DNA from: an uncultured bacterium
GTDB taxonomy: Bacteria; Actinomycetota; Acidimicrobiia; Spongiisociales; ZC4RG35
NCBI GenBank assembly: GCA_963825585.1
Contig: CAWGTX010000006.1
Span: 963,905-1,027,904 of the forward strand
Reading direction: 5' to 3'
DNA length: 64,000 nt
Part shown: positions 1 through 45,481 of the stretch, in pieces
Numbering within the stretch: the first letter of the stretch is position 1
Layout: each line of letters begins with the position of its first letter
Program-made: the position numbers and the translations under genes
The notes under the pieces: model-generated
Told to the model about the DNA's origin: nothing
Databases searched by the model: none
Seen by the model: only the letters and a program-made list of their open reading frames with translations

Positions 1-741
1 CCACTCGACGTGACCGCGGACATCGCCGCGGGTTCGGTCACGCTGGCGGGGTCGGTGCCGGACGACGCCACGAAGACAAACGTGGTGGATGCCGCCATCG
101 CCGGATTCGGTGCCGGCAACGTCAGCGACCAGCTGAACGTTGCCGGCATCGAGCCCACCGCCGAGCTGACTTCAGCAGCCACCGACCTGGCCGCCCTGTT
201 GGGCGGTGCCGCTCCGGCTCTGTCCGAGGGCGCCGTCAACCTCCAGGAAACGGTCCTCACCGTTACCGGGACAGCCACCACCGTCGAGGGCGTCGGCACC
301 ATCAACGACGCACTGGCCGGGTTCACGAACGTGACGGTGACGTCCACGGTGGGGGCCGATCCCGGGCAGGCGGTCGACGCGCTCGGCGAGCTGCTGACGC
401 TGGAACCGATCACCTTCGAGTCCGGCTCCGACGTAATCACCAGCGAATCGGAAGAGACGCTGCTGACTGCCGTCGAGTATCTGACGGCGGCATTCGCCGC
501 CAACCCGGATCTGGCCGTCGAAATCGGGGGTCACACCGATGACCAGGGTGACGAAGGCTTCAACCAGGAACTCAGCCAGGCGCGGGCGAGCGCCGTGCTG
601 CAGTACCTGACCGACAGCGGCGTTCCCGCCGCCGGGCTGACCGCCACGGGGTACGGAGAGTCCGAGCCAGTGGCAGACAACGCAACATCCGAGGGGCGGG
701 CACAGAACCGTCGTATCGAGTTCACGATCGTGGAGGGCTGA
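1..741 (+). CDS. OmpA/MotB-family peptidoglycan-binding protein with N-terminal BON-like Ala/Gly/Thr-rich repeats; 5' end truncated by window
   Basis: C-terminal OmpA signature GGHTDDQGDEGFNQELSQARASAVLQYL...GYGESEPVADNATSEGRAQNRRIEF. Reading frame is open from nt 1 to stop at 741. Confidence 0.8.
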   Translation, partial: PLDVTADIAAGSVTLAGSVPDDATKTNVVDAAIAGFGAGNVSDQLNVAGIEPTAELTSAATDLAALLGGAAPALSEGAVNLQETVLTVTGTATTVEGVGTINDALAGFTNVTVTSTVGADPGQAVDALGELLTLEPITFESGSDVITSESEETLLTAVEYLTAAFAANPDLAVEIGGHTDDQGDEGFNQELSQARASAVLQYLTDSGVPAAGLTATGYGESEPVADNATSEGRAQNRRIEFTIVEG

Positions 742-4412: not shown

Positions 4413-5369
4413 TCAGTCCTTCGTGAAGTAGTCGGGCGACTGGTAGCGGCCGGTCCGCAGATACGTCACCTGCATGAGGAGGTCGTTGAGCAGCGAGGAG
4501 GCGCCGAAGCGGAACCAGTCGGGTGACATCCAATCACGGCCGAGCGTCTCGTTCAGCACCACCAGGAAACGGATTGCCTCCTTGGAGGTTCTGATCCCGC
4601 CAGCGGGTTTCATGCCCACCTGCACTCCGGTGAGATGCCGGTAATCACGAATCGCCTCCAACATCACAAGTGTCACCGGGAGGGTGGCGGCTGGATTGAT
4701 CTTGCCGGTCGATGTCTTGATGAAGTCGGCGCCGGCTGCCATCGCAAGCATCGAGGCACGCCGCACGTCATCGAGGGTGCCCAGCTCACCGGTTTCGAGG
4801 ATCACCTTGAGATGCGCTTCGCCACACGCAGCCTTGACCGCCCTGATCTCGTCGTAGACCTCGAGGAAGCGACCCGACAGGAACGCCCCCCGGTCGATCA
4901 CCATGTCGACCTCGTCGGCGCCCATCTCGACCACTCGCCGAACCTCGTCCACCTTGATGTCGAGCGGTGCCTGCCCCGATGGGAAGTAGGTGGCGACCGA
5001 CGCCACCTTCACTCCGCTGTCGCCCAGTGCCTGGCGGGCGATCGGCACCATGTTCGGGTAGACGCAGATGGCGGCTACCGATGGGATCGACGGGTCGCTC
5101 GGATCGGGGCGGATCCCCTTGGCGGACAGTTGACGGACCTTGCCGGGCGTGTCCTTGCCTTCGAGCGTCGTGAGGTCACACATTCGGATGGCGAGCTCGA
5201 GAGCCGCCATCTTCGATTCCTTCTTGATCGACCTGGTCGACAGCGTCGCCACCCGTTCGGTGGCGGCCACCTCGTCGACCGAGGTCACACCACGCACGAA
5301 CGCATCGATCGAGGCACACGTGGCGCGTTCGCCGAGATCGCCGGGGATGGAGACGGCTGGCACGGTCAT
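4413..5369 (-). CDS. deoC: Deoxyribose-phosphate aldolase, long (about 318 aa) form
   Basis: DERA motifs VAAICVYP, GADEVDMVI, FIKTSTG, MKPAGGIRT. Sits 4 nt upstream of the ALDH gene, the classic deoC-plus-acetaldehyde-DH pairing. Confidence 0.9.
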   Translation of the reverse strand: MTVPAVSIPGDLGERATCASIDAFVRGVTSVDEVAATERVATLSTRSIKKESKMAALELAIRMCDLTTLEGKDTPGKVRQLSAKGIRPDPSDPSIPSVAAICVYPNMVPIARQALGDSGVKVASVATYFPSGQAPLDIKVDEVRRVVEMGADEVDMVIDRGAFLSGRFLEVYDEIRAVKAACGEAHLKVILETGELGTLDDVRRASMLAMAAGADFIKTSTGKINPAATLPVTLVMLEAIRDYRHLTGVQVGMKPAGGIRTSKEAIRFLVVLNETLGRDWMSPDWFRFGASSLLNDLLMQVTYLRTGRYQSPDYFTKD

Positions 5370-5430
5370 ACGGTCTGATCCTAGGTCGCCCCTCGGATCG
5401 AATGATTCCGTGACCTCATCGAACCGGACG

Positions 5431-5916
5431 TCACGACGACGTGAAGTATCGGCTGCGGAAGTAGCCGAGTGCCGCTGCCTCCGTGTCGCCCACGGAGAGT
5501 CGTTCCACCAACCCGAGGAAGATCAGGTGGTCGCCGCCCTCATACGTGGCGTGCGAACTGCACTCGAACGTCGCCAGCGCCCCCGGCAGGACCGGGAGTC
5601 CGGCGTGGCCAGGGGCCCAGTCGATACCGTCGAACCGGTCGACACCCTTGGCGGCGAAACGGATGGACAGATCCTCCTGCTCGGCTCCCAGCACGTGGAC
5701 GACGAAGCCGTTGTCGGCGGTGAACGCATCGAGGTTGGCGGAACTCCTGCCGAGCGAGAACTGAACCAGCGGCGGGTCGAGCGACACCGAGACGAAGGAG
5801 TTGGCGGTCAACCCCGAGGGAACGCCGTCGGCGTCGAGGGTGGTGACGATCGTCACCCCGGTCATGAACTGGCCGGCGGCGTTTCGGAACTCGCGCGGTT
5901 CGATCTCGTGTTCCAC
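5431..5916 (-). CDS. Flavin reductase-like (FMN-binding split-barrel) NAD(P)H:flavin oxidoreductase
   Basis: FRNAAGQFMTGVTIVTT...SFVSVSLDPPLVQFSL, typical of the HpaC/flavin reductase domain. Confidence 0.85.
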   Translation of the reverse strand: MEHEIEPREFRNAAGQFMTGVTIVTTLDADGVPSGLTANSFVSVSLDPPLVQFSLGRSSANLDAFTADNGFVVHVLGAEQEDLSIRFAAKGVDRFDGIDWAPGHAGLPVLPGALATFECSSHATYEGGDHLIFLGLVERLSVGDTEAAALGYFRSRYFTSS

Positions 5917-12379: not shown

Positions 12380-12796
12380 CTAGGCGGGTGGGTACACACC
12401 CATCCCCTTCGCCTTCTCGGTCTGCCAGAAGATGTCGGCGATGTCGTCGATGAGCGCCAGCAGGTTCTGTGCCACGGCGGCGTCGAGGCTCTTCTTGGCG
12501 TCGCCGGCCCCCTTGATGGCCTTCCAGAACAGGTCGTCCAACTGCGGAAACTCGGCACGGTGCTCGGCGGTGAAGAAGTCGGCCCACAACACCATCAGAT
12601 GATGCTTGACCTCTTCGGCCCGCTGCTCCTTGATGATGATGGCCCGCGCCTTGAAGTGCTCATCGTCGCTGCCGTGGTACTTCTCGATGGTCTTGAGCAC
12701 CGAGAGCGCCTCGATCTTCGCCTGGGCGGGGTCGTAGACACCACAGAACAGGTCGCAATGGGCGTAAACCGGGGTGGCTGCACTGAACAGACCCAT
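12380..12796 (-). CDS. sodN: Nickel superoxide dismutase precursor
   Basis: Leader MGLFSAATPVYA, then the Ni-hook HCDLFCGVYDPAQA (His-Cys-x-x-x-Cys). GGAGG SD 6 nt upstream of ATG 12794-12796. The track ORF over-extends the N-terminus. Confidence 0.9.
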   Translation of the reverse strand: MGLFSAATPVYAHCDLFCGVYDPAQAKIEALSVLKTIEKYHGSDDEHFKARAIIIKEQRAEEVKHHLMVLWADFFTAEHRAEFPQLDDLFWKAIKGAGDAKKSLDAAVAQNLLALIDDIADIFWQTEKAKGMGVYPPA

Positions 12797-12866
12797 GGAT
12801 GAACCTCCGTCTCGTCTCGTCTGACCGACCATACTCCGCCTTGGGCGGCAGCAGAAAGACGGAACG

Positions 12867-13280
12867 GTGGACAGATTCGTTGTGCGCGAGATGTCGATGA
12901 GCCCCACGCTGCTCCCCGGCGATCACCTCGTGGCTGTCGATCGGGTGCCTCGGGTCGGTCAGATCGCCGTGTTCGCACATCCATCCGATCCCGGAATGAG
13001 GCTGGTCAAGCGGGTGGTGGCAGGACCCGGTTGGGACGTGCGGCTGGTCGACACCAGGCTCGAGCTGACCGGGCCGGCTGGGGCCGGATCGGTGATTCGA
13101 ATCCCGGCCGAACACCGCCTCAGGGTGTGGTCCCTGTCCAACGACGAGGTGTTCGCTCTGAGCGATGCAGCCGACGTCACCAGGGCCGACTCGCGAGTGT
13201 TCGGACCCGTTCCCGTCGAGACGGCGATGACCGTGGTACTCCGATATCGACCTGTGCGGCGGCTGCAGAGATTCGGCTGA
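12867..13280 (+). CDS. sodX: S26-family signal peptidase, Ni-SOD maturation protease
   Basis: SPTLLPGDHLV...LVKRVVAGPGWDV...SDNE..SxDSRVFGPV. Divergent from sodN. GTG start; alternative ATG at 12891. Confidence 0.75.
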   Translation: MDRFVVREMSMSPTLLPGDHLVAVDRVPRVGQIAVFAHPSDPGMRLVKRVVAGPGWDVRLVDTRLELTGPAGAGSVIRIPAEHRLRVWSLSNDEVFALSDAADVTRADSRVFGPVPVETAMTVVLRYRPVRRLQRFG

Positions 13281-13505: not shown

Positions 13506-15269
13506 ATGTCCGCAGCCGTACCGAGCGACATCGACATCGCTCGCGCCGCCACCTTGCAGCCGATCAGTGCCATCGCCGAACGCATCGGGCTCGAGCCCGA
13601 CGAGCTCATCCCCTACGGAACGACCAAGGCAAAGGTCAATCTCGACGCACTCAAGCGGATCGCCGGCCGCCCCCGCGGCAAGTATGTGGACGTCACCGCC
13701 ATCACGCCCACGCCCCTCGGCGAGGGCAAGACCACCACCACGATCGGCCTCACCCAGGGCCTCGGCCGGTTGGGCCATGAGGCGATCGCCTGCATCCGCC
13801 AGCCTTCGATGGGCCCCACCTTCGGGATCAAGGGCGGCGCCGCCGGCGGCGGCTACAGCCAGGTGGTGCCGATGGACGAGTTCAACCTCCACCTGACCGG
13901 CGACATCCACGCCATCACCGCCGCCCACAACCTGGTGGCTGCCGCCATCGATGCCCGCTGGTACCACGAGAGTCGCATGTCCGACGAGGCACTCGAGAAG
14001 GTGGGACTGAGCCGCCTCGGCATCGACGTGTTCAACCTGCAGTGGAACCGGGTGATGGACATCAACGACCGGGCGCTCCGCAACGTGATCGTCGGCCTCG
14101 GCGGCTCGCTGGAAGGCCGCCCCCGCGAGACCGGGTTCGACATCACCGTGGCCTCCGAACTGATGGCGATCCTCGCCCTGGTCGACGGCGACAACTACGC
14201 CAGCGCCCTCCGCAACCTCCGCGAACGCGTTTCCCGGGTGGTGATCGGCAACTCGAAGACGGGCACTCCGATCACTCTGGAGGACCTGGGTGTGGCCGGA
14301 GCCGTGACGGTTCTCATGAAGGACACTCTTCACCCCACGATCATGCAGACCATCGAGGGCCAGGCCGCCTTCGTCCACGCCGGTCCGTTCGCCAACATCG
14401 CCCACGGCAACTCCTCGATCCTGGCGGATCGCCTCGCCCTCCACCTCGGCGACTACGTGATCACCGAGTCCGGATTCGGTGCGGACATGGGCATGGAGAA
14501 GTTCATGGACATCAAGTGCCGCACCTCGGGTCTGCGGCCCGACTGTGTGGTGCTGGTCGCCACCGTGCGGGCGCTCAAGACCCACGGCGGAGGCCCCAAG
14601 GTGGTGCTCGGTCGGCCGCTCGACAAGGCGTACACCGAGGAGAACCTGGCACTGCTGCAGGCAGGCATGCCCAACCTGGCCGCCCACATCAAGAACGCCA
14701 AGCGATTCGGCGTCCCGGTGGTGGTGGCCATCAACAGCTTCCCCACCGACACCTGGGCAGAGATCAACGCCATCCGTGAGGCAGCACTGGAAGCCGGCGC
14801 GTCGGACGCGGTGCTCGCCGAACACTGGGGCAAGGGCGGCGAGGGCGCCACCGACCTGGCTGCTGCCGTGGTGAAGGCGTGTGAGGAGCCGAACGAGTTC
14901 GCCTACCTGTATCCGCTGAACATGTCGATCAAGCAGAAGATCGAGATCATCGCCAAGGACATCTACGGCGCCGCCGACGTCGAGTACTCCCCCGCCGCCG
15001 AAGCCCAGATCGCCGGATTCGAGAAGGCAGGATTCGGCTACCTGCCGATCTGCATGGCCAAGACCCATCTGTCCATCAGCCACGACGCCAACCTCAAAGG
15101 CGCCCCCACCGGCTTCACGGTGCCGGTACGCGAAGTACGGGCGTCGGTCGGCGCCGGGTTCATCTACCCCCTGTTGGGTGAGATGCGCACCATGCCCGGC
15201 CTCGGGTCGACCCCGGCCTACATGAAGGTCGACATCGACGACGACGGCAACGTCGTCGGTCTCTTCTAG
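13506..15269 (+). CDS. fhs: Formate--tetrahydrofolate ligase
   Basis: PTPLGEGKTTTTIGL, EFNLHLTGDIHAITAA, FANIAHGNSS. GAGGAGG SD upstream. Confidence 0.95.
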   Translation: MSAAVPSDIDIARAATLQPISAIAERIGLEPDELIPYGTTKAKVNLDALKRIAGRPRGKYVDVTAITPTPLGEGKTTTTIGLTQGLGRLGHEAIACIRQPSMGPTFGIKGGAAGGGYSQVVPMDEFNLHLTGDIHAITAAHNLVAAAIDARWYHESRMSDEALEKVGLSRLGIDVFNLQWNRVMDINDRALRNVIVGLGGSLEGRPRETGFDITVASELMAILALVDGDNYASALRNLRERVSRVVIGNSKTGTPITLEDLGVAGAVTVLMKDTLHPTIMQTIEGQAAFVHAGPFANIAHGNSSILADRLALHLGDYVITESGFGADMGMEKFMDIKCRTSGLRPDCVVLVATVRALKTHGGGPKVVLGRPLDKAYTEENLALLQAGMPNLAAHIKNAKRFGVPVVVAINSFPTDTWAEINAIREAALEAGASDAVLAEHWGKGGEGATDLAAAVVKACEEPNEFAYLYPLNMSIKQKIEIIAKDIYGAADVEYSPAAEAQIAGFEKAGFGYLPICMAKTHLSISHDANLKGAPTGFTVPVREVRASVGAGFIYPLLGEMRTMPGLGSTPAYMKVDIDDDGNVVGLF

Positions 15270-15274
15270 ACGCC

Positions 15275-15394
15275 ATGCTGGCCGGCGTGACGGTGGACGT
15301 GAGCGACCTGGACCGCTCGAGAGCGTTCTATGCGACCGTCTTCGGCGTGCACGCCCTCCGCCGTGGCCCGTCACCGGAACTGGTGGTCAATTGA
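15275..15394 (+). pseudogene. Remnant (39 codons) of a glyoxalase/VOC-family gene
   Basis: MLAGVTVDVSDLDRSRAFYATVFGVHALRRG..., a typical VOC N-terminal beta-alpha-beta start, then stop after 39 aa. Overlaps the end of the convergent gene. Confidence 0.4.
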
Positions 15395-15791
15395 TGGCGA
15401 GCGCGGTCGTGAACACTGCGCCGATGGTGGCCATCGCCCCCACCTGCGACAGTATGAATGTCCGGGTCTGCGCTCTGAGCTCGCTGCCGAACGACTCGGA
15501 CTGCGCCCGCAAGGCCTCGAACACCATGTCCAGTCGCATTTCGACCCGCTCCATCCGCACCTCGAGCGCATCCATCCGCGCCTCGAGCGCATCCATCCGC
15601 ACTCCGAGGGCTGCGACCCTCGTCTCGAGCCCGTCGATACGGGTGCCCAGTGCGTCGGTGTCCGACCGGGTGGCCAGGTCGATCCCCTCCGGGGCGGGGA
15701 GAGCGCGCATGAGCGTCTCGGCATGCCGTTCGCCGAGAACCTCGGCCAGCTTCTGGCGCAACGCCTGTCGCGGATCAGCCATCGTTGTCAT
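15387..15791 (-). CDS. Small coiled-coil protein with C-terminal TM anchor; contains three 21-bp coding tandem repeats
   Basis: Start MTTMADPRQALRQKLAEVL with GGAGG SD. RMDALEARMDALEVRMERVEMRLD repeats; C-terminal hydrophobic segment. Confidence 0.5.
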   Translation of the reverse strand: MTTMADPRQALRQKLAEVLGERHAETLMRALPAPEGIDLATRSDTDALGTRIDGLETRVAALGVRMDALEARMDALEVRMERVEMRLDMVFEALRAQSESFGSELRAQTRTFILSQVGAMATIGAVFTTALAIN

Positions 15792-16182
15792 GGATCGTAC
15801 CTCCGGCCCTCCCGAAGCGAACGTACGAAACGGATGTGACAGAATCGGAGCAGCGAGGAGCGCGGGGCGAGGAGCGAGGAGCCGGAAGTCTGGACCGGCA
15901 GCCGAGGCGGACCAGCAGATACGCCGCCAGGCGGATCTGCAACCCGGCGCTTGCGCCGGGCGGCGTCTGTTCGGCGGGCGTCGACGAGGTGAACCCGTCA
16001 CCGTGCGGGCCGAAGTCGGCGCATAAGAAGTGAAGAGTTCGACGACAATGAAGACACGAGGGCGGCAGCCCGGGCGGACCAGCGTCTGTTCCGCCCGGCG
16101 TCAACCCACATCGGCAACATGATCCGGCAAGACGACGGCGCGGGGCGGAAGTCCGCCCGCAATAGAAAGGAGGTGATCAGAG

Positions 16183-18081
16183 ATGTCACGACGTCCACGT
16201 TTGGCGACACCATTGGTGCGTGAGGATGGGGTGCTTCGCCCGGCGAGCTGGGAGGAGGCGATCCGGCGCGCAGCCGACGGCTTCCAGGCCGTGCGGAGCG
16301 AGCACGGTCCGATGGCGTTGGGGATGTTCAGTTGTTCGAAGGCGACCAACGAGACCAACTACCTGGCGCAGAAGTTCGCACGGACCGCATTGGGCACGAA
16401 CAACATCGATTCCTGTAACCGCACTTGACACGCTCCCAGCGTCACCGGTCTGGTGGCGGTTCTCGGAGTTGGTGGCGGTACGAGTTCCTATGAGGAGATC
16501 GAGAACACCGATCTGATCATCCTCTGGGGTTCGAACGCGCGCAATGCCCATCCGATCTTTTTTCACCATCTCCTGAAGGGGGTGCACAACGGCGCACGTT
16601 TGTACACCGTCGATCCCCGCCGGAGCGAGTCGGCGCAGTGGGCCGACGTGTGGCTCGGCATCGACGTGGGTTCTGACATCGCCCTGGCCAACGCCATGGC
16701 GAAGGTGATCATCGATGAGGGTCTGGCGCACATGCCGTTCATCGAGAAGGCCACCACCGGTTTCGACGAGTACCGGGCGAACCTCGAGTCGTTCACGCTG
16801 GATCGGGCGGCCGGGATCACGGGGATCCCTGCCGAGGTGATCCGGGAGATGGCGATTGCATATGCGACGGCCGAGACGGCGCAGATCTGTTGGACGTTGG
16901 GGATCACCGAGCATCACAACGCCACCGACAACGTGCTGGCGCTGATCAGCCTGGCGTTGTTGACGGGGCACGTGGGCCGGTACGGGTCGGGGCTGGTCCC
17001 GATCCGTGGTCAGAACAACGTTCAGGGCGGCGGCGACATGGGTGCGCTGCCGAACAAGCTCCCTGGTTTCCGGGATGTGGAGAGCGATGCCGACCGGGCC
17101 GATTTCGAGGCGGTGTGGGGCCGTCCGATTCCTCCCAAGCGTGGCTGGCATCTGACGCAGATGTTCGAGGCCATGGAGGCGGGCAAGCTGCGGGCGCTGT
17201 ATGTGCTGGGCGAGAACCCGGCACAGTCGGAGGCGGATTCGCATCACACGAAGCGACGGCTGGAGGCACTGGATTTCATGGTGGTGCAGGACATCTTCCT
17301 GACGAAGACGGCCGAGATGGCCGACGTGGTGTTCCCGGCTGCCGCCGATTGGTGCGAGGGCGAGGGAACGGTCACGTCGTCGGAGCGTCGGGTGCAGCGG
17401 GTTCGTGCTGCGCTGACTCCGCCGGGTGAGGCCAGAACCGACATCGAGATCCTGTCGATGATGGCCGAAGCGCTCGATGCCGGGTGGGGCCGCCCGTCCG
17501 CCGAGGAGGTGTGGGACGAGCTGCGGAGCCTGTCTCCACCGCATCGGGGCATGAGTTATGCCCGGTTGGAGGAGTTGGGCGGCATCCAGTGGCCGTGTCC
17601 CGACGAGTCGCATCCGGGCAGCCAGTTCCTCCACGCCCGCCTGTGGGAGGATCACGTGGTGAATCCGGCGCCGTTCTTCCCCGTCGAGTGGGCTCCCCCG
17701 GTCGACCAGCTGAGCGACGAGTTCCCGCTTCGGATGACGACGGGGCGGCATCTCGACGGCTACAACACCGGTGTTCAGTCGGGTGGTTTCGATTCGCCGA
17801 TCCGGATCGGTTGCACCATCGACGTGTCTCCCGAGGACGCGGAACGTCTGGATCTGACTCCGGGTGAGATCGTGTCGGTGTGGTCGCGCCGGGGCGACAT
17901 CGAAGCTCCGGTTCGGATCGATCCGGGTCTGCGGCCCGGGCTGACGTTCATGGCGTTGCACTATCCCGACGACATCGACATCAACGAACTGACCATCGAG
18001 GCCTGGGATCCGAAGTCGGGAACCGCCGAGTTCAAGGCGACGGCCATCCGGATCGAGAAGCTGTCGGTGCCGGTGCGATGA
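16183..18081 (+). CDS. Formate dehydrogenase alpha subunit, catalytic Mo-bisPGD (MopB) part only. Contains in-frame UGA (16426..16428), a candidate selenocysteine. Lacks the N-terminal Fe-S domains.
   Basis: TNETNYLAQKFARTALGTNNIDSCNRT-[TGA]-HAPSVTGL...NTDLIILWGSNARNAHP aligns with FdhF/FdsA around Sec140. Strong SD aaaggaggtgatcagagATG. Confidence 0.8.
16441..16457 (+). promoter_or_regulatory. Candidate bacterial SECIS hairpin downstream of the in-frame UGA
   Basis: 12 nt after UGA: gucacc-GGUCU-gguggc (6-bp stem incl. one G.U, GGUCU apical loop), resembling the E. coli fdhF SECIS apex. Confidence 0.5.
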
Positions 18082-18169
18082 TCACCAGCACCACGGCCAC
18101 CAACCCGCGCTCTGGGGACGAAATCGACCGTCTGACGGTCGTTTCTGTCCCCAGTTGGGAGGAGAGGGC

Positions 18170-19900
18170 GTGGATCTGAAGCTGATCGGTGCCGAGGCGA
18201 CGCCCGAGGAGGTTGCGGCCATCGCCGCTGCCGTCCCGGCGGCCGAAACCGTGGACCTGGCTGGTCGGGTGGTCCGTACCGAATGGACGTCGCTGCGACA
18301 CCACCTGCTGCCGGCGCTCGATGCCGTCCAGTCCAGCATCGGATACGTCAGCACGGGGGCGGTCGACGAGATCGCTCGCCGTTTGCACGTGCCGCCGGCC
18401 GAGGTGTTCTCGGTGGCGTCGTTCTACGCCCTGATCGCCTTGGAGGAGTCCCCGCCGACGGTGGCTCACATCTGCGACGACACCGCCTGCCGCCTGGCCG
18501 GCGGAGCCTCGTTGCTGGCGTCGCTCGACGGCCGTGACGACGTCCACCCCACCCCCTGCATCGGTCAGTGCGACCGGGGCCCTGCCGCCTTCATCCAGCG
18601 GGCGGGCGAAGACGACCTGGTGGTCACGGCGGCGACCCGGGACGATCTGCTGGCGGTACTCGCCGGGGCCGAGAGCGAGCCGCCGCTCCCCTACATCGTC
18701 GGCGACCGGCTCCTTCAGCACGTCAACACGACCGACCCCGAGGATCTGGACTCCTACTGCTCCCGTGACGGGTACACGGCTCTGGCGCATGCCGTGGAGC
18801 TCGGTCCCGACGGTGTGATCGCCGAGATGAAAGCCTCGAATCTGCGGGGCCGCGGCGGCGCCGCCTTCCCCACCGGTGTGAAGTGGGAGGCGGTGCGAAA
18901 CCAGCCGGCCCAGCCGAAGTACGTGGCCTGCAACGCCGACGAGTCCGAGCCCGGAACGTTCAAGGACCGGGTGATCATGGAGGGCGACCCGTTCGCCCTC
19001 ATCGAGGCGATGACCATCGCCGCCTTCACCGTCGGGGCCGAGCATGGGTTCATCTACATCCGGGGCGAGTACCCGGTGGCGACCCGCCGGCTTCGCAACG
19101 CCATCGCCCAGGCCGAGGCCGCCGGTCTGCTGGGCGACGACGTGATGGGCACCGGCTTGGCGTTCCATCTGGAGGTACGGCGGGGTCAGGGCGCATACAT
19201 CTGCGGCGAGGAAACGGCGCTGTTCAACTCGATCGAGGGCTTTCGCGGTGAGCCGCGCCAGAAGCCGCCGTTCCCGGTGGAGTCCGGCCTGTTCGGAAAG
19301 CCCACGCTGCTGAACTCGGTGGAGACCTTCGCCAACGTCGCCTGGATCCTCAGCAACGGTGGCGCCGCCTTCGCCGCCATGGGCACGCCGGAGTCCACCG
19401 GTACCCGCCTCATGTGCCTGTCGGGCGACGTCGCCCGTCCCGGCGTCTACGAGGAGCCGTTCGGCACCACCCTGCGTTCGGTGTTGGGGCAGGCGGGCGG
19501 AGTGGTGGGCGAGCTGCGGGCGATCCTGCTGGGCGGCGCCGCCGGTACCTTCGTTGGGCCGGACATGCTCGACGTGCCACTGTCGTTCGAGTCGGCTCGC
19601 GCCAACGGCTTCTCGCTCGGTTCGGGGGTGGTGATGCCGTTCAACACCACCCGCGACATGGGCGACATCGTGGCCCGGATCGCCCGGTTCTTCCGTGACG
19701 AGAGCTGCGGGCAATGTGTCCCCTGCCGGGTGGGCACCGTGCGGATCGAGGAGGCGGTGGGTCGGGCCCGGGCCGGGAAGGGTGTCGACATCCCGCTGAT
19801 CGTGGAGATGGACCGGGCCATGAAGGACTCGTCGATCTGCGGGTTGGGCCACACGGCCTCGTCGGCGGTGCTGAGCGCCATGAGGATGGGGTTGGTATGA
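18170..19900 (+). CDS. Fused FdsG-FdsB (NuoE-like 2Fe-2S + NuoF-like FMN/NADH-binding 4Fe-4S) subunit of NAD-dependent formate dehydrogenase
   Basis: NuoE-type CxxxxC...CxxxC (CDDTACRLAGG...CIGQCDRGPA), then NuoF GRGGAAFPTGVKWE, ESEPGTFKDR, CGQCVPCRVGT. GTG start with GGGAGGAGAGG SD. Confidence 0.85.
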   Translation: MDLKLIGAEATPEEVAAIAAAVPAAETVDLAGRVVRTEWTSLRHHLLPALDAVQSSIGYVSTGAVDEIARRLHVPPAEVFSVASFYALIALEESPPTVAHICDDTACRLAGGASLLASLDGRDDVHPTPCIGQCDRGPAAFIQRAGEDDLVVTAATRDDLLAVLAGAESEPPLPYIVGDRLLQHVNTTDPEDLDSYCSRDGYTALAHAVELGPDGVIAEMKASNLRGRGGAAFPTGVKWEAVRNQPAQPKYVACNADESEPGTFKDRVIMEGDPFALIEAMTIAAFTVGAEHGFIYIRGEYPVATRRLRNAIAQAEAAGLLGDDVMGTGLAFHLEVRRGQGAYICGEETALFNSIEGFRGEPRQKPPFPVESGLFGKPTLLNSVETFANVAWILSNGGAAFAAMGTPESTGTRLMCLSGDVARPGVYEEPFGTTLRSVLGQAGGVVGELRAILLGGAAGTFVGPDMLDVPLSFESARANGFSLGSGVVMPFNTTRDMGDIVARIARFFRDESCGQCVPCRVGTVRIEEAVGRARAGKGVDIPLIVEMDRAMKDSSICGLGHTASSAVLSAMRMGLV

Positions 19901-20853
19901 CCGACATGGTCACCATCACCGTCGATGGCTCGCCGGTGTCGGTCCGCGCCGGTGCCACCCTGCTGGAGGCGTGTCGTTCGATCGGAAGCGACCAGCCGAC
20001 GCTGTGCTACCTCGAGACCCTGACCCCGGTGAACGTGTGCCGGGTGTGTGTGGTCGAGGTGGAGGGCAGCCGCACCCTGGTGCCTTCCTGCTCCCGGCCC
20101 GCCGAGGAGGGAATGGTGGTGCAGACCGACTCGGAACGGGTGAGACTGAGCCGCAAGGTGGTCTTCGAGTTCCTGGCGTCGTCGGTGGACATGTCGCTGG
20201 TGAACGCCGAGACCAAGGGTTGGATGTCGGAGTACGGATGTGATCCCGACCGTTTCGGACCGCCCGCTCCCCCGGTCACCGACCGCGACCGCCGCCGGAG
20301 TGGACACCACCACCCCGCCGACGGCATGGTCGTCGAGACGGTCCACCAGCCGGTCAAGGTGGACAACCAGCTCTATGTCCGCGACTACAGCCGCTGCATC
20401 CTCTGTTACAAGTGCGTGGAGGCGTGCGGCGAGGACGCCCAGAACACCTTTGCCATCGCCGTGGCGGGGCGCGGGTTCGATGCCCGCATCTCGACCGAGT
20501 TCGACACCGGTCTCACCGACTCGGCCTGCGTGTTCTGCGGCAACTGCGTGGGAGTCTGTCCCACCGGGGCGCTCATGTTCCGTTCCGAGCATGAACTCCG
20601 GAACGCCGAGATGTGGCATCCGGAGGACCAGACCGTCACCCGCACCGTCTGCTCGTACTGCGGTGTGGGGTGCAACCTGGAGTTGCACGTCCAGGACAAC
20701 CGGATCGTGAAGGTGACCTCCCCGCAGGACCATTCGGTCACCGAGGGCCACCTGTGTATCAAGGGCCGCTTCGGATACGAGTACGTCCAAGAACTGGGCG
20801 ATCTCGCCATGACCCCAATCGACGAGGTACTGGCGCGGGCGCGCCAGTCTTGA
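19897..20853 (+). CDS. Formate dehydrogenase alpha subunit, N-terminal Fe-S part (2Fe-2S, His/Cys 4Fe-4S, two ferredoxin-type 4Fe-4S, and the MopB N-terminal 4Fe-4S domain), 318 aa
   Basis: 2Fe-2S Cys pattern; CILCYKCVEAC, CVFCGNCVGVCP, CSYCGVGCNLELH...GHLCIKGRFGYEYVQ. ATG overlaps the upstream stop (ATGA). Confidence 0.85.
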   Translation: MTDMVTITVDGSPVSVRAGATLLEACRSIGSDQPTLCYLETLTPVNVCRVCVVEVEGSRTLVPSCSRPAEEGMVVQTDSERVRLSRKVVFEFLASSVDMSLVNAETKGWMSEYGCDPDRFGPPAPPVTDRDRRRSGHHHPADGMVVETVHQPVKVDNQLYVRDYSRCILCYKCVEACGEDAQNTFAIAVAGRGFDARISTEFDTGLTDSACVFCGNCVGVCPTGALMFRSEHELRNAEMWHPEDQTVTRTVCSYCGVGCNLELHVQDNRIVKVTSPQDHSVTEGHLCIKGRFGYEYVQELGDLAMTPIDEVLARARQS

Positions 20854-20885
20854 TCGCCTCCCGCAGGCCGCCATGCCAGAACCAC

Positions 20886-20932
20886 AACTGGGGACGGAAT
20901 CGACACCTGATGGGTCGACTTCGTCCCCAGTT
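20886..20932 (+). terminator. Hairpin after the FDH Fe-S gene
   Basis: Perfect 11-bp stem aactggggacg / cgtccccagtt with a 25-nt loop containing an inner gtcgac stem. No U-tract. Confidence 0.45.
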
Positions 20933-21132
20933 CGGGTTTGGAGGTCTCCTCGGAGGTTCAGACGGCGAGCGGGAGACGCTCTGTGGATGCGCGATGAACG
21001 CTCGTTCTGGAGTCTCCCTGCGCACTGGCCTCGCGGCCGCAGGCACACAGGAACGAGGTGATGTCACCATCGTGGCGACGTTCGACGCCTCTCACCTGAT
21101 AATCGGCGATCAGGACTTCGTGACTGTACGTA

Positions 21133-21315: not shown

Positions 21316-21438
21316 GTTCGTTCCTTTTCATCGAGTTACTCTCCGGATCCTGTCGGCAGATCGCCGCCATGATTCAGAGCAGTAATGGCTCTTAACCTCT
21401 ATACCCCTTACTATACCTGAGCTAGAGTAATACCTCAA
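21316..21438. promoter_or_regulatory. Unusually AT-rich divergent promoter region with short direct repeats (ctatacc x2)
   Basis: taatggctcttaacctctataccccttactatacctgagctagagtaatacctcaag; GC content far below genome average. Confidence 0.4.
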
Positions 21439-21996
21439 GTGGACTTTTCTCATTACAGCAGCGCCCCGTTGGGACTGGTGGTCGAGCTCGTCAACACCGA
21501 CGGCAAGCTCGTAGACCGGCGCGACTCCCTCATGTTCCTGCCGGATCTCGAGTCGTTCCTCGACCGCCATCTCGACATCTGGATGGAGGACTCCCGGCCT
21601 CCGACCGAGAGCGATGTCGAGCCGGTTCGGGCACTGCGGCGTGCCCTTCGGACGGTGTTCGAGGCCACCGATCCCGACCAGGCGGCCGCCATCATCAACC
21701 AGATCCTCGCCGAGAACGGCGCTGCTCCCCGGGTCTCGACGCACGGCGGTGCGCCCCATCTCCACTTCGAGACGCCGGGTACCAGCTTCTCGCGATGGTT
21801 GGCCGTCGTTGCCGCCATGGGGCTGGCCACCGTTGTCGTCGACCAGGGCATCGGACGGCTGGGAGTCTGCGCCTCGGCTGACTGCCACGACGTGTTCCTC
21901 GACACCTCACGTAATCGATCCCGACGCCACTGCTCCTCGACCTGCTCGACCCGCGAGAACGTGGCTGCCTACCGCAAGCGACACAGAACGGCATGA
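21439..21996 (+). CDS. ABATE-domain / CGNR zinc-finger protein (putative stress-responsive regulator)
   Basis: C-terminal CASADCHDVFLDTSRNRSRRHCSSTCSTRENVAAYRKRH, the CGNR zinc-finger motif. GTG start. Confidence 0.75.
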   Translation: MDFSHYSSAPLGLVVELVNTDGKLVDRRDSLMFLPDLESFLDRHLDIWMEDSRPPTESDVEPVRALRRALRTVFEATDPDQAAAIINQILAENGAAPRVSTHGGAPHLHFETPGTSFSRWLAVVAAMGLATVVVDQGIGRLGVCASADCHDVFLDTSRNRSRRHCSSTCSTRENVAAYRKRHRTA

Positions 21997-30900: not shown

Positions 30901-32427
30901 TCAGCCGACTCCACCTTCCGCGGTTCTCCTGCCGATGAAGTCGTGGAGCTCTGCGGCAGTGGCGTCGTCGAGCGGTGGCGGTTCGAAGTCGGCCAGGACC
31001 TGCTTGTAGACCCGGTGGGCGCGCTGGTCGGCCGTGAGACCGCCCGCTAGCTGCCAGTTCTCGAAGTTCTGCCAGTCCGACACGATGGGCGCGTAGAAGG
31101 CGGTTTCGTAGCGCTCGAGGGTGTGTGCCGACCCGAAGAAATGGCCGCCCGGCCCGACGTCGCCGATGGCGTCGACCGCCAGTTCCGCGGTGTCGATCTT
31201 GAGCGGCTGCATGACCTCGGCCATCATCTGGAGGAGTTCCACATCGATGACGAACTTCTCGAAGCTGGCCACCAGCCCGCCTTCCATCCACCCTGCACCA
31301 TGCATGACCAGGTTGGCGTGGCCCATGACCGCTCCCCACAGCGACATCTCGGACTCGTAGGCGGCCTGGGCATCGACTGCGTTGGAGGCGTTGGCATTCG
31401 ACGAGCGGTACGGGATCCCGTACCGCCGCGCCAGCTGGCCACCTGCCAGGGCCGCCCTCGTGTACTCGGGGGTACCGAACGCCGGGGCGCCCGATCTCAT
31501 GTCGACATTGGATGTGAATCCGCCGTAGACCACCGGAGCGCCCGGGTTGACCATCTGGGTGAACGCCAGACCGGCCAGAGCTTCGGCATTCTGCTGGGCC
31601 AGGGCCCCGGCGATGGAGGCGGGCGCCATCGCTCCTGACAGCGTGAACGGTGTGATCACCACAACCTGGTTCATGCGGGCCATCTCGATGAGCCCTTCGA
31701 TCATGGGCCCGTCGAGACGCAGCGGCGACGACGTGTTGATGATGGTGAAGAGGGACGGCTCGGCCGATAGCTGCTCTCTGGTGATTCCGCGCCCGATCCT
31801 CACGATCTCGAGCGCGTCGATGATCCGCCCTCGTCCCAGCGAGTAGGCGTGGAACACCTTGTCGGTGAGCGTGATGAACGAACCGAGCCCCGCCAGATGC
31901 CTGGTGGCGGGTGGGAGGTCGATTGGTTCCACCGGATACCCGCCAAACAGGTGGACGATGTTGAACGCCTGTCCGAGCCGCAGGAAGTCCTGGAAGTGGG
32001 CGAAGGTGCCGGGTCGGCGGCCGCCATCGAGCGACGACGAGTTCGGGGCGCTCGCCACCGAACAGAAATTGACGTTCGTGCCTCCGACGGCGAGATTGTG
32101 AGCAGGGTTGCGGGCGTGCATCGTGAACCCGGCGGGAGCCTTGGAGACGAGGTCGAGGACCAACTCACGATCGAATCGGACCCGCTCGGTTCCCGCCTCG
32201 ACGTCGGCGCCGTTGGCGGCGAGGATCTCCAGCGCCTCCGGATGGAGGAAGTCCATGCCGATCCGCTCCAGAATCTGGAGCGAGGCGTCGTGGATGGCCT
32301 CGATCTGGTCGTCCGCGAGAACGTCCATCGGCCGGAAGGGATTGGTCAGATTCCGCCACGGCAGCTGATGGAGACCGGCGCCCCGGCTGGCCCGTCGACC
32401 GGCCCGGGTGGAGCTTTCACGTGGCAT
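30901..32427 (-). CDS. Trimethylamine methyltransferase (MttB) family, non-pyrrolysine type (quaternary-amine:corrinoid methyltransferase-like)
   Basis: Full-length MttB fold with no in-frame amber. No corrinoid protein or MtxA partner in the window. Confidence 0.9.
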   Translation of the reverse strand: MPRESSTRAGRRASRGAGLHQLPWRNLTNPFRPMDVLADDQIEAIHDASLQILERIGMDFLHPEALEILAANGADVEAGTERVRFDRELVLDLVSKAPAGFTMHARNPAHNLAVGGTNVNFCSVASAPNSSSLDGGRRPGTFAHFQDFLRLGQAFNIVHLFGGYPVEPIDLPPATRHLAGLGSFITLTDKVFHAYSLGRGRIIDALEIVRIGRGITREQLSAEPSLFTIINTSSPLRLDGPMIEGLIEMARMNQVVVITPFTLSGAMAPASIAGALAQQNAEALAGLAFTQMVNPGAPVVYGGFTSNVDMRSGAPAFGTPEYTRAALAGGQLARRYGIPYRSSNANASNAVDAQAAYESEMSLWGAVMGHANLVMHGAGWMEGGLVASFEKFVIDVELLQMMAEVMQPLKIDTAELAVDAIGDVGPGGHFFGSAHTLERYETAFYAPIVSDWQNFENWQLAGGLTADQRAHRVYKQVLADFEPPPLDDATAAELHDFIGRRTAEGGVG

Positions 32428-32528
32428 GACGGCAGGTTACCCCGCCTTCCCGTCATGTGGAACGGTTCCACGAAGTGGACCAGGAGCGGCGTGTGGTCAG
32501 GGCGATGTCGACGCCGCTGGATGAAGGG

Positions 32529-37091: not shown

Positions 37092-38558
37092 TCATACGCG
37101 AGAAACCTCCATCACGGCCTTCGCCGGCCGCTCCATCTGGGAATGGACCTTCCAGATCTCGTCGAGGACCGCCTTCGGTCCGTCCAGCGTGTTCGCCGAC
37201 CGTCCCGCCTCCATGTCGACGTGCACCAGCACCTGCTCGTTGGTGCAGAGCAGATCGCCGGTGTCGCCGTGGTACATGGCGTGGAAGATGTGGAGCCGCT
37301 TGTGGTCGTGGCCGAGCAGCTGGGTGGTGAACCGCAGCGGCTCACCGGTCGAGCACTCCTTGGTGTAGACGAGATGGCTCTCGACGGTGTAGAACGAGTG
37401 CTTGGCGGCCCGGTAGTCCTCGTCGATACCGATGTACCGGAAGAAGGCGTCCGACGCCCATCCGAACGCCAGCAGGTACGCCGACTCGGTCATGTGGTCG
37501 TTGTAGTCCACCCAGTCGGGCGCCACCCGGCACTGGTAGAGGGGCAGCGGCGTGTCGATCGCCATCCCCGGCGTCCAGCGGGTGGGTGCGGCCCGGTCGA
37601 CGGTGCGGCCTTCGCGCCGGGCGATGATCGCCCCCGCCCCGAGCTTGGACTCACGAAGCGAGTACATCACCGAGATCAGGGAGTCGTCACGCAGCCGCTC
37701 CAGCTCGGCGATCGAGCGTCCCGCCGCCTGTGCCTGGGTGCCCTCGACCATTCGGTCGATGAGGGTGTCGGTGAGCGGGGGCGCCACCAGCTTGGTCCAC
37801 GGCCACTCGAGGGCCGGTCCGAACTGTTCGAGCATGTGCCGCATCCCCGCCTCGCCGCCGGCCAGGTGGTAGATCAGGTTGGTCCCCATCGCCGCCCAGC
37901 GGATGCCGGGGCCGTACACGATCGAGTCGTCGAGCTCACCGGTGGTGGCGACGTTCTCGGAGATCATGTGGAGGATCTCCCGCCACAAGGCCTCCTGCAG
38001 CCGGTCGGCCAGGAAGCCGTCCACCTCGGTGCGGACGTGGAGGGCGTACATGTCGAGGTCGTCGTACACGATGAGCGCCCGCTCGACGACGTCCGGCGAT
38101 GTCTTCGCACCGCCGAGCACTTCCACCAGCGGCAGTAGATAGACGGGGTTGAACGGGTGTCCCACCACCATCCGCTCCGGATGGCGCATCCCGTCCTGCA
38201 GCTCGCTGGGCAACAGCCCTGAGGTGGACGATCCGATGATCACCTCGGGCCCGGCGGTGGCGTCGATGGCCCGCAGCACCCGTTGTTTCAACCCGACGTT
38301 CTCGGGCGCCGACTCCTGCACGAAGTCGGCCTGCTCACCCACCTCCTCGGGCGAAGCGACGAACGTGACCCGGCCGGGATCGGCACCCGGATACAGCCCG
38401 ATCTTGCGAACCGACGGCCAGGCACGCTCGATCGAGGCGTGGAGCCGGTCCTCCGCTCCGGGGGCCGGGTCGCTGGCGACCACGTCCCAGCCTCGCGAGA
38501 GGGCGCGGACCGCCCAGCCGGCGCCGATCACGCCGGTCCCCACCACGCCGAATCGCAT
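37092..38558 (-). CDS. lcdH: L-carnitine dehydrogenase-like (3-hydroxyacyl-CoA-dehydrogenase NAD domain fused to C-terminal hotdog thioesterase-like domain)
   Basis: MRFGVVGTGVIGAGWA Rossmann start; 3HCDH body; C-terminal about 150-aa 4HBT-like region. Confidence 0.7.
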   Translation of the reverse strand: MRFGVVGTGVIGAGWAVRALSRGWDVVASDPAPGAEDRLHASIERAWPSVRKIGLYPGADPGRVTFVASPEEVGEQADFVQESAPENVGLKQRVLRAIDATAGPEVIIGSSTSGLLPSELQDGMRHPERMVVGHPFNPVYLLPLVEVLGGAKTSPDVVERALIVYDDLDMYALHVRTEVDGFLADRLQEALWREILHMISENVATTGELDDSIVYGPGIRWAAMGTNLIYHLAGGEAGMRHMLEQFGPALEWPWTKLVAPPLTDTLIDRMVEGTQAQAAGRSIAELERLRDDSLISVMYSLRESKLGAGAIIARREGRTVDRAAPTRWTPGMAIDTPLPLYQCRVAPDWVDYNDHMTESAYLLAFGWASDAFFRYIGIDEDYRAAKHSFYTVESHLVYTKECSTGEPLRFTTQLLGHDHKRLHIFHAMYHGDTGDLLCTNEQVLVHVDMEAGRSANTLDGPKAVLDEIWKVHSQMERPAKAVMEVSRV

Positions 38559-39496
38559 CAGAAGTTGACCTGGTCGATGCCCTTGAGACCGAGGACCTCA
38601 CGGGTCTCGTCGGCGGTCATCGGCTCACGCGAGAGCTCGTCGAGGATGCGGACGATCTTCTCGACCTGGTCGGCGTTCGACTCGGCCAGCTTGCCCTTGC
38701 GCAGGTAGATCGAGTCCTCCAGACCCACCCGAACGTTGCCGCCCAGGGTGGCGCCGGCCGTGATCAGGTCGAACTGGGCGCGACCGCCACCGAGGATGCC
38801 CCATTCGGCATCGTTGCCGAACAGCCGGGTGGCGGCCTCCTTCATGTGGAACACGTTCTCGACATCGGCGCCGATCCCACCGAGGGTGCCGATCACGAAC
38901 TGCATGAAGATGGGTGTCGGCACCAGCCCCTGATCGGCGAAGAACGCCAGCGTGTAGAGGTGGCCGATGTCGTAGGCCTCGAACTCGAAACGGCAGCCCG
39001 TCTCGGCGGCCAACACGGTGAGCATGTATTCGATGTCGGAGAACCGGCTGACGAACGGCTCGTCCTTGGTGGAGGCGAGGTAGGGCTCCTCCCAGTCGTA
39101 CTTCCAGCGACCCTCGTACCTGGGGATCATCTGGAACAGGCCGTAGTTCATGGTGCCCAGGTTGCAGGTGGCGAGCTCGGGCTTGAGATCCCGCACCACC
39201 TGGAGCCGTTCCTCCACGCTCTGGCCGGTGGCGCCACCGGTGGTGATCGAGATCACCGCGTCGGAGCGTTCCTTGATGCCGGCGCAGTACTCCCTGAAGA
39301 CTCCCGGGTCCGACACGGGCCGCCCATCCCGGGGGTCACGGGCGTGGAGGTGGATGACACCGGCACCCGCTTCGGCAGCGGCCACGGACTGTTCGACGTG
39401 ATCCTCGATGGTCATCGGGATGTCGTTGTTCATGGTGGGCGTGTGCGCCGATCCCGTCACCGCACACGTCACGATCACCTTGCCGGCCGGCCGCAT
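38558..39496 (-). CDS. BKACE-family (3-keto-5-aminohexanoate cleavage enzyme, DUF849) protein; candidate 3-dehydrocarnitine cleavage enzyme
   Basis: Start MRPAGKVIVTCAVTGS...HLHARD... TIM-barrel BKACE signatures. Stop overlaps the lcdH start (TGATG). Confidence 0.85.
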   Translation of the reverse strand: MRPAGKVIVTCAVTGSAHTPTMNNDIPMTIEDHVEQSVAAAEAGAGVIHLHARDPRDGRPVSDPGVFREYCAGIKERSDAVISITTGGATGQSVEERLQVVRDLKPELATCNLGTMNYGLFQMIPRYEGRWKYDWEEPYLASTKDEPFVSRFSDIEYMLTVLAAETGCRFEFEAYDIGHLYTLAFFADQGLVPTPIFMQFVIGTLGGIGADVENVFHMKEAATRLFGNDAEWGILGGGRAQFDLITAGATLGGNVRVGLEDSIYLRKGKLAESNADQVEKIVRILDELSREPMTADETREVLGLKGIDQVNF

Positions 39497-39532
39497 GATG
39501 TCTCCCTCGCCCGAGCTACATGTCCCGACAGT

Positions 39533-39551
39533 CGTTCCGCGATTCGGAACG
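39533..39551. promoter_or_regulatory. Palindromic candidate operator (7-N5-7) in the divergent IclR / BKACE-lcdH promoter region
   Basis: cgttccg-cgatt-cggaacg. Confidence 0.5.
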
Positions 39552-39596
39552 TTCTGTATAGTGGACCACGATATCGCACGGGGAGACGGCGCGTCA

Positions 39597-40343
39597 ATGG
39601 CCGACAACGTTCAATCGGTGCTCCGAGCCTTCGACATCCTCCGGGTCCTGGCCGCTCACTCCGAGGTCCAGCTCCGCCACCTGGCCGCTGAGACCGGGCT
39701 ACCCAAATCGACCCTGTCCCGACTGCTGGCCACGATGGAGTCGATCGGGATGGTGGCTCGTGGTGTTTCGGAAGGCAGCTACACCTCGGGACCGGGGCTC
39801 CCCGCCATCACCGGTTCGGCCCAGCGCCCATCGCAGTTGCTCGGGGTGGCCCACGCCTACCTGGCAGAGCTGACGGACCGCTACGGCGAGGATTCAGCCC
39901 TCGCCGTCGCCGACGGCGAGGCGGTCATCTACACCGTGCAGGTGCGGAGCGACAACCCAATCCAGGTCCCCAACTGGACCCGCCAACGGTTCCGGCCGCA
40001 CACCGTCGCCGCCGGGTTCGTGCTGATGGCGTGGTGGCCGGCGGAGCGCCTCGACGCCTACCTCGAGACACCACTCGACGCCCCCACTCCGAAGACGATG
40101 ACCGCTCCAAGCGCCATCCGGCGCCGCTCGGCCGACATCCGCCGTCGCGGTTACGGCTGGGCCTTCGACGAGTGGCTCGAGGGCATCAGCGCCGTCGCAG
40201 CCCCCGTTCTCGACGGCTCCGACAACCTGGTGGCGATGGTCAGCACCTTCGGTCCCAGCTACCGCTTCCCGGGCGACCGCGACCCCGACCAGATCGGCCG
40301 AGACCTGGCCGAGACCGGACGGTTGCTGTCACGACACCTCTGA
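39597..40343 (+). CDS. IclR-family transcriptional regulator
   Basis: N-terminal wHTH (VLRAFDILRVLAAHSEVQLRHLAAETGLPKSTLSRLL) plus IclR effector domain. GGGAGA SD. Confidence 0.85.
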   Translation: MADNVQSVLRAFDILRVLAAHSEVQLRHLAAETGLPKSTLSRLLATMESIGMVARGVSEGSYTSGPGLPAITGSAQRPSQLLGVAHAYLAELTDRYGEDSALAVADGEAVIYTVQVRSDNPIQVPNWTRQRFRPHTVAAGFVLMAWWPAERLDAYLETPLDAPTPKTMTAPSAIRRRSADIRRRGYGWAFDEWLEGISAVAAPVLDGSDNLVAMVSTFGPSYRFPGDRDPDQIGRDLAETGRLLSRHL

Positions 40344-45323: not shown

Positions 45324-45481
45324 GAAGACCTCATTTCCAATGCTCTGGACAGTTCTGTACATGCTAAAACGTGAACGACGCGAATCCACATGCCGATCCC
45401 GCCATATGTCGAGTTGGCGACGTTTCTCAAGCCCGACGAATCGATACCGATACCGAACACAGAACGGAGGTCACACGGTCC

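Follow-up and report, generated by a model that had tools for sequence, protein, structure and literature searches.

A conserved in-frame UGA codon, probably read as selenocysteine, in the catalytic gene of a split formate dehydrogenase from an uncultured Acidimicrobiia bacterium

Among bacterial selenoproteins the alpha subunit of formate dehydrogenase (FDH) is the most widespread, and it is often found beside sel genes (PMC5029168). FDH3 of Actinomycetospora chiangmaiensis DSM 45062 is a cytoplasmic, NAD+-dependent FDH that contains selenocysteine (Sec) (Rohwerder et al. 2020, PMC7176365). It is made of FdhA3 (640 aa, with Sec, U, at position 80), FdhB3 (614 aa, NuoE/F) and FdhC3 (316 aa, a separate Fe-S protein); its selenocysteine insertion sequence (SECIS) was predicted with bSECISearch, formate removal in vivo was selenium-dependent, and the protein was detected by proteomics (PMC7176365). 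Here we describe a comparable locus of an uncultured Acidimicrobiia bacterium, found on contig CAWGTX010000006.1 of assembly GCA_963825585.1, in a stretch of 64 kb that was analysed as a whole (referred to as the window). The gene fdhA of this locus has an in-frame UGA at codon 82 and, judging from comparison of related sequences, it is very probable that this codon is recoded as Sec by way of SelB and a SECIS.

The locus was compared with FDH3 using the published sizes and domain descriptions. Both systems have three genes. The alpha subunit comprises the metallopterin part alone (640 aa with U80 there, 632 aa with a predicted U82 here), NuoE and NuoF are fused in the beta subunit (614 aa in FDH3, 576 aa in the window), and a separate Fe-S protein with homology to the N terminus of FdsA makes up the gamma subunit (316 and 318 aa, respectively). 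The hosts differ, being of the class Acidimicrobiia here, with the nearest relative coming from a stromatolite metagenome, and of the Pseudonocardiales there. The gene context also differs: 2-hydroxyisobutyric acid (2-HIBA) and formyl-CoA metabolism there, fhs and one-carbon (C1)/methylamine genes here. It may be noted that the enzyme type and the split architecture were already known from FDH3, and that knowledge of Sec recoding is unchanged by the present locus; what is new is an Acidimicrobiia member of the Sec-type split FDHs.

The FdsA-type enzymes, i.e. Rhodobacter capsulatus FdsGBA (6TG9), Methylorubrum extorquens FoDH1 (7VW6/7E5Z) and Bacillus subtilis YjgC/ForCE (8RQZ), contain the same modules: NuoE/F-like, NuoG-N-like Fe-S, FS0, and a Mo/W site with bis-pyranopterin guanine dinucleotide (bisPGD). 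In these enzymes the Fe-S/FS0 and catalytic parts form one chain of ~960-1000 aa with a Cys ligand, whereas here they are split, permuted and, as predicted, of the Sec type; fdhA aligns to their C-terminal ~620 residues (E = 1e-119 to 1e-127). E. coli FdhF (1AA6/1FDO) shares the U-H dipeptide (CARV-U-HGPSVAGL there, CNRT-U-HAPSVTGL here), but there the N-terminal Fe4S4 domain is part of the one chain, and the enzyme is a component of formate-hydrogen lyase and does not use NAD+. From these homologies the enzyme of the window is predicted to be a split, NAD-linked FDH of the FdhABC type, and its coupling to NAD+ and its physiological role are likewise those that homology suggests.

Translation of positions 16183-18081 gave a single frame of 632 codons that is interrupted solely by the TGA at 16426-16428 and is itself terminated by TGA. 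The text around the codon reads TCC TGT AAC CGC ACT TGA CAC GCT CCC AGC GTC ACC GGT CTG GTG GCG, and the corresponding peptide is ...NNIDSCNRT*HAPSVTGL.... There are 81 sense codons before the TGA and 550 after it. An earlier reading of the sequence alone (the first-pass annotation) had given 542 further codons; the frame does continue, but 542 is the length of the open reading frame (ORF) counted from the GTG at 16453. The homologues of fdhA begin at the same residue as ATG 16183. An in-frame TGA lies at 16174-16176, two codons 5' of this ATG, so a longer N terminus of fdhA is not possible. The coordinates of the features are collected in Table 1.

Table 1. Positions of the features described in the text (in the window unless another contig is named).
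Feature	Position	Strand	Description or evidence
fdhA	16183..18081	+	catalytic Mo/W-bisPGD FDH subunit, 632 residues, predicted Sec at position 82
Shine-Dalgarno GGAGG	16169..16173	+	9 nt ahead of ATG 16183; read from sequence
UGA codon 82	16426..16428	+	predicted to be read as Sec, metal ligand; catalytic His next
Predicted tryptic peptide spanning Sec82			T-U-HAPSVTGLVAVLGVGGGTSSYEEIENTDLIILWGSNAR
Bacterial SECIS element (predicted)	16432..16469	+	RNAalifold, pairing counts, codon invariance, covariance model
SECIS lower stem, 5 bp	16432-16436 / 16465-16469	+	RNAalifold columns 7-11 with 40-44
SECIS upper stem, 6-7 bp	16441-16446 / 16452-16457	+	RNAalifold columns 16-21 with 27-32; extra pair C16440-G16458
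SECIS apical loop GGUCU	16447-16451	+	
fdhB	18170..19900	+	NuoE/NuoF-like fusion (2Fe-2S, FMN/NAD site, 4Fe-4S), 576 aa, GTG start
fdhC	19897..20853	+	318-aa Fe-S subunit, NuoG-N-like, C-terminal Molybdop_Fe4S4 (FS0) domain
fhs	13506..15269	+	formate-tetrahydrofolate ligase; translation, synteny, PF01268 FTHFS in L088
MttB-family methyltransferase	30901-32436	-	C1/methyl-group cluster with fhs
BKACE enzyme	38558-39610	-	C1/methyl-group cluster with fhs
DAO-FAO_M-GCV_T dehydrogenase	42855-45470	-	C1/methyl-group cluster with fhs
Split gene calls, near-identical contig L088	9731-9976 and 10001-11629		
SelD, L068 (Solirubrobacterales metagenome-assembled genome)	4777-5796	-	directly upstream of fdhA, divergent; 371 bits against a cut-off of 125
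SelA (truncated), L074 (Streptosporangiaceae metagenome-assembled genome)	1-723	+	upstream of fdhA
SelB, L074	726-2780	+	upstream of fdhA

The read-through product matched PF00384 Molybdopterin (230.7 bits) and PF01568 Molydop_binding (80 bits). TIGR01591 Fdh-alpha aligned over model positions 50-672 of 672 with 649.6 bits, the curated cut-off being 666.25; the score falls below the cut-off because the first 49 model positions, which form the Fe4S4 domain, are missing from the chain. Among solved structures fdhA matched FdhF-type enzymes (E 1e-149 to 1e-120), the best being the FdhF of the hydrogen-dependent CO2 reductase (HDCR) of T. kivui (5.8e-149), 7BKB_D, and E. coli FdhH 1AA6 (1.6e-140). 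Codon 82 and His83 align on the catalytic C-H of 7QV7_S and 7BKB_D, and also with U140-H141 of E. coli fdhF (NC_000913.3, TGA codon 140). Hence the proposal that the TGA stands at the Sec position of FdhF was correct, this being the catalytic Cys/Sec column. The FdhF identity itself held for the catalytic motif but not for the chain as a whole, which has no N-terminal Fe4S4 domain, the latter being encoded in trans.

For comparison, 80 loci with 65-95% protein identity to fdhA were fetched from species-representative genomes. Most are metagenome-assembled genomes (MAGs) of Acidimicrobiia; the labels of the rest include Gaiellales, Thermoleophilia, Acidobacteriota and Dehalococcoidia, and mis-binning may account for some of these labels. 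All counts over 81 sequences refer to the window plus these 80 loci. Codon 82 is TGA in every one of the 80 loci (81/81 with the window), in the common context ...(N/S)N(I/V/L)DSCNRT*HAPSV.... The ~70 closest database proteins (72-100% identity) are 536-552 aa long, cover 85% of the query, and all start after the TGA. At 63-65% identity, homologues from cultured actinomycetes are full-length (633-655 aa), and the six that were fetched carry Cys (TGC/TGT) at the position of codon 82. A comparison of Cys against TGA in orthologues, which the first-pass annotation had proposed, thus gave TGA in all near relatives and TGC/TGT in the six more distant ones.

The ratio of nonsynonymous to synonymous substitution rates (dN/dS), determined by the Nei-Gojobori method for the window against 12 relatives, was 0.09-0.26 over the 81 codons before the TGA and 0.05-0.25 over the 550 codons after it. 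It is clear that purifying selection acts on the fdhA frame before as well as after the TGA. These values bear on the possibility that the FDH gene is decaying and that a nonsense mutation gave rise to the TGA. Gene callers do split fdhA in two, and the missing N-terminal Fe4S4 domain could resemble decay. Yet 81/81 sequences, widely diverged as they are, have the TGA, dN/dS is well under 1 on both sides, no disruption other than the TGA at codon 82 was found in fdhA, and the 'missing' domain is intact in fdhC at every locus, including the Cys forms of cultured actinomycetes. A pseudogene, a possibility raised already with the first-pass annotation, is therefore highly improbable and effectively refuted.

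Public gene callers report fdhA as a protein of 81 aa and another of 542 aa, the latter starting from GTG 16453. The same 81 aa + 542 aa split is seen in the near-identical but independent assemblies L088-L090, which derive from two different sequencing runs. This observation bears on the supposition that the true codon is TGC or TGT and that the TGA arose in sequencing or assembly. A one-base difference would suffice for such an error, and nothing specific speaks for it; against it stand the two sequencing runs with the same split, the TGA in 80 other assemblies, and the SECIS-specific codons (see below) that accompany the TGA. Of the explanations considered here, an error of this kind is the least probable, to the point of being negligible.

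The gene calls correspond to another possibility, namely that the UGA terminates translation and GTG 16453 serves as a new start, so that an 81-aa peptide and a 542-aa protein assemble non-covalently. In this genome a GTG is present 8 codons past the TGA, and the enzyme family does include split subunits (fdhA/fdhC). However, the codon aligned with this GTG is GCG, ACG or GCA in 71/81 sequences, so it is not a conserved start, and no Shine-Dalgarno sequence precedes GTG 16453. Conservation extends through the 8 codons in between (HAPSVxGL), among them that of the catalytic His, and the product of a restart would be without the metal-ligand residue. Moreover, each Cys orthologue is one continuous chain whose Cys occupies precisely the position of codon 82. 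Restart is thus very improbable, and the two ORFs are a single gene, as had been proposed.

Among the ORFs of the window that are supported by GC content at the third codon position (GC3), 30 of 35 end with TGA, fdhA included. Hence the genetic code is standard, with no reassignment of TGA. Conservation of the TGA, selection on the frame, and the normal use of TGA as a stop together exclude a pseudogene, a sequencing error and a reassigned code. A crude GC3-based scan of the window for other in-frame TGAs yielded just adjacent genes in the same frame; the scan is insensitive, as it missed fdhA itself.

The first-pass annotation had also described a hairpin 12 nt downstream of the UGA. It is present as stated: GUCACC-GGUCU-GGUGGC occupies 16441-16457 and begins 12 nt past the UGA, with the loop Gs at +19/+20. 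An alignment (A1) of the 60 nt from the TGA onward was made for the 81 sequences and folded with RNAalifold. The consensus fold and our own structure contain the same two helices. Standard pairs occupy 92% of the cells, against 31-69% for slid partners, and the covariation score was reached by 0/500 shuffles. Pair 19-29 is GC in 70 and AU in 10 of the 81 sequences (GC:67/AU:10 in 78 distinct rows), and its A-U variant is tied to amino-acid changes (Thr..Val vs Ala/Val..Ala). Pair 20-28 is C-G, U-G or U-A, and pair 18-30 shows one double-synonymous change from C-G to U-A, in a single relative (L079).

The strongest signal for the hairpin is synonymous-site constraint in the 81 sequences. Counting from the TGA, codon +7 (Gly) is GGT in 81/81, compared with a background of 14.5% among Gly codons elsewhere in these genes; codon +8 (Leu) is CTG in 81/81 (background 40%); codon +5 (Val) is GTC in 80/81 (47%); codon +2 (Ala) is GCT in 64/81 (6.8%); and codon +13 (Gly) is GGA in 54/81 (13%). 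The six Cys-type orthologues served as the control set. They come from cultured actinomycetes (Thermopolyspora flexuosa, Streptomyces sp. NBC_01187, Saccharopolyspora antimicrobica, Nonomuraea, Marinactinospora and Actinomadura) and share the three-gene operon and the split architecture, with 63-65% identity; FdhD is usually adjacent, and oxalate/formyl-CoA genes are often nearby. They differ in having TGC/TGT for TGA. Here the peptide CHAPSVAGL is kept, with codons GGC/GGG/GGA and CTC/TTG/CTG. When the SECIS structure was evaluated, its energy was -1 to -8 kcal/mol for the Cys orthologues and -10 to -19 kcal/mol (mean -15.5) for the TGA forms. The SECIS fold and the codon constraint are present in the TGA forms and absent from the six Cys orthologues. 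A covariance model built from alignment A1 scored 76 bits for the window; the Cys forms scored 32-47 bits, arising from coding homology with broken pairs. The same model, run over the window, gave no second significant match.

Bacterial SECIS elements have been generalised as a stem of 6-8 bp with a conserved loop G ~20 nt after the UGA (PMC4605307), and the geometry of the fdhA hairpin agrees with this description. For the enterobacterial fdhF SECIS, GGUC loop identity and a bulged U have been found functionally important (PMC4489274). In the fdhA hairpin GGUC is invariant in the loop and the bulged U is absent, though it is only for E. coli SelB that these determinants have been established. 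The likeness to the apex of the E. coli fdhF SECIS that had been claimed therefore stands in part. In both, GGU CUG follows the UGA by 18 nt in the same register and provides the apical-loop GGUC; the E. coli element, however, is a GGUC tetraloop closed by A-U and has the bulged U, while the present one is a GGUCU pentaloop closed by C-G with no bulge. On these comparisons the fdhA hairpin behaves as a bacterial SECIS; that reading is supported, and the hairpin would be expected to bind SelB and to direct recoding.

As a lead only, the Moorella thermoacetica fdhA SECIS of the SelB co-crystals may have a GGUCU loop as well.

Several results weigh against Sec insertion at this hairpin. Folded alone, the 42-nt segment of the window gave -17.9 kcal/mol with a z-score of only -2.3, which is modest (5/200 shuffles were as good). 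The case for the SECIS is therefore a comparative one and does not depend on the single-sequence fold. The A-U form of pair 19-29 belongs mostly to one clade, the window's own, so independent compensatory events are few. The bulged U, which is of importance in the fdhF SECIS of E. coli, is missing from the hairpin. The covariance model found the E. coli element at the correct site but with 10.7 bits and E = 4.9; this match is not significant, and no homology at the level of an RNA family is claimed from it. No relevant Rfam match was obtained at gathering thresholds in the window or at E <= 10 in 15250-16600. Finally, no tRNA-Sec was detected in the 64-kb window by ARAGORN, which found no tRNA of any kind there, and no homologue of SelA, SelB or SelD was detected in it by tblastn using approximate E. 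coli queries; the sole SelB match in the window was a weak one to the GTPase domain of TypA.

When the window and the 80 loci were searched by tblastn and ARAGORN, sel genes were found in two relatives, with SelD in one and SelA and SelB in the other (Table 1). The SelB scored 275 bits against an NCBIfam cut-off of 242, and the truncated SelA scored below its cut-off. Sec machinery has also been reported for another order of Acidimicrobiia (bioRxiv 10.64898/2026.04.03.716425).

These data also bear on read-through of the UGA by other means, such as a near-cognate Trp or Cys tRNA or a reassigned code, in a genome without sel genes. The lack of sel genes and tRNA-Sec in the window is in keeping with such read-through. 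Against this, TGA ends 30/35 of the window ORFs, with fdhA among them, the hairpin has SECIS geometry and a GGUC loop under strong RNA-level selection in the TGA forms only, and two relatives have sel genes beside the operon. We regard this explanation as very improbable, if slightly less so than restart at the GTG, and insertion of Sec at codon 82 remains by far the most probable fate of the UGA.

The following mechanism is envisaged for Sec insertion and catalysis. With the UGA in the ribosomal A site, SelB·GTP·Sec-tRNA(Sec) would bind the hairpin just downstream and thereby deliver Sec, in competition with release factor 2 (RF2). Sec82 and His83 would then oxidise formate in the Mo/W-bis-PGD active site. 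The electrons would exit via the FS0 [4Fe-4S] cluster, located on the C terminus of FdhC rather than on the catalytic chain, and would pass from the clusters of FdhC to flavin mononucleotide (FMN) in the NuoE/F-like FdhB and on to NAD+.

The products of fdhB and fdhC fit this arrangement of modules. FdhB matched NCBIfam nuoF_fam (435 bits) and NuoE; a GGAGG lies ahead of its GTG, and the same 576-aa call is found in the near-identical contig L088. The ATG of fdhC overlaps the stop of fdhB (ATGA), and FdhC has one 2Fe-2S and two ferredoxin-type 4Fe-4S motifs, along with an NCBIfam match to the N terminus of NuoG. The C-terminal end of FdhC corresponds to TIGR01591 positions 1-51 and contains the CSYCGVGC...C motif; PF04879 is recognised there in orthologues. 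A Pfam search did not find the PF04879 Fe4S4 (FS0) domain on fdhA, the domain being encoded in trans on fdhC. The classical alpha chain is thus cut precisely at the boundary of the FS0 and Mo domains, and its parts are in permuted order, catalytic first and Fe-S/FS0 last. The order fdhA-fdhB-fdhC was seen in every related locus long enough to show it, Sec and Cys forms alike, and the 86 related loci agree in this split arrangement.

Two very stable palindromic hairpins of ~46 nt accompany the operon, at 18112-18157 and 20885-20935 (CTGGGGACGaAATCGAC-N9-GTCG..GTCCCCAG; -34 and -40 kcal/mol). The first lies between fdhA and fdhB, overlapping the ribosome-binding region of fdhB, and the second lies right after fdhC. 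Both positions are kept in the closest relative, L001 (7918-7960 and 10686-10728), with the arms changing together. The window contained no further convincing copy; one extra match with 3 mismatches was seen at 62748-62764. These hairpins may be terminators, mRNA stabilisers or an element that uncouples expression. In the GC-rich leader of fdhA (~340 nt), a 38-nt direct repeat of 76% identity was seen at 15896-15933 and 16063-16100 (CGGCAGCC..GGCGGACCAGC...); it has no Rfam match.

The gene fhs stands upstream of fdhA in many Acidimicrobiia loci as well, and it is likely that its product is the source or the sink of formate. FdhD often adjoins the operon elsewhere; none was found in the window. 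The MttB-family gene has no in-frame stop (non-pyrrolysine type), and the DAO-FAO_M-GCV_T dehydrogenase resembles the dimethylglycine/sarcosine types. This context suggests that formate for the FDH comes from tetrahydrofolate-linked demethylation or C1 oxidation.

With regard to annotation, two mis-called ORFs are to be replaced by one selenoprotein gene, and the same split at the UGA runs through this clade in public databases (~70 protein clusters, 80 species-representative genomes). If Sec is inserted as predicted, the bacterium would need selenium and a sel system for formate oxidation; the first-pass annotation had predicted such a system elsewhere in the genome. The covariation-supported alignment and the covariance model provide a resource for the fdhA-type bacterial SECIS, which is without Rfam coverage.

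A wider reading, which we consider rather unlikely in its entirety, combines a laterally mobile Sec-FDH cassette, a shared SelB code, an FS0 in trans that eases switching between Sec and Cys, and uncoupling by a hairpin. The invariance of the bulge-less GGUCU SECIS in 81 sequences under several phylum labels could reflect a shared SelB recognition code and would also force coupled changes in the active-site loop (Thr..Val vs Ala/Val..Ala). Having FS0 in trans might let the catalytic subunit switch between Sec and Cys, or be exchanged, with the electron-transfer module untouched. The stable hairpin after fdhA might uncouple the selenoprotein from fdhBC expression when selenium is scarce.

Highly similar operons are present on four contigs (L029, L080, L017 and L058) that are labelled Betaproteobacteria, Candidatus Nitrosopolaris (an archaeon), Gemmatimonadota or Eisenbacteria. 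These labels point to either lateral transfer or mis-binning of MAGs.

An AT-rich patch (…ctcttaacctctataccccttactatacctgagctagagtaatacc…) was seen at 21330-21460, in a genome of ~67% GC; it separates the FDH operon from a CGNR zinc-finger (ABATE) gene. The window also carries the nickel superoxide dismutase gene sodN at 12380-12922 (minus strand). The combination of sodN with a maturation peptidase is typical of marine and actinobacterial genomes, and in contig L088 sodN stands beside the gene for an S26-type maturation peptidase, just upstream of fhs.

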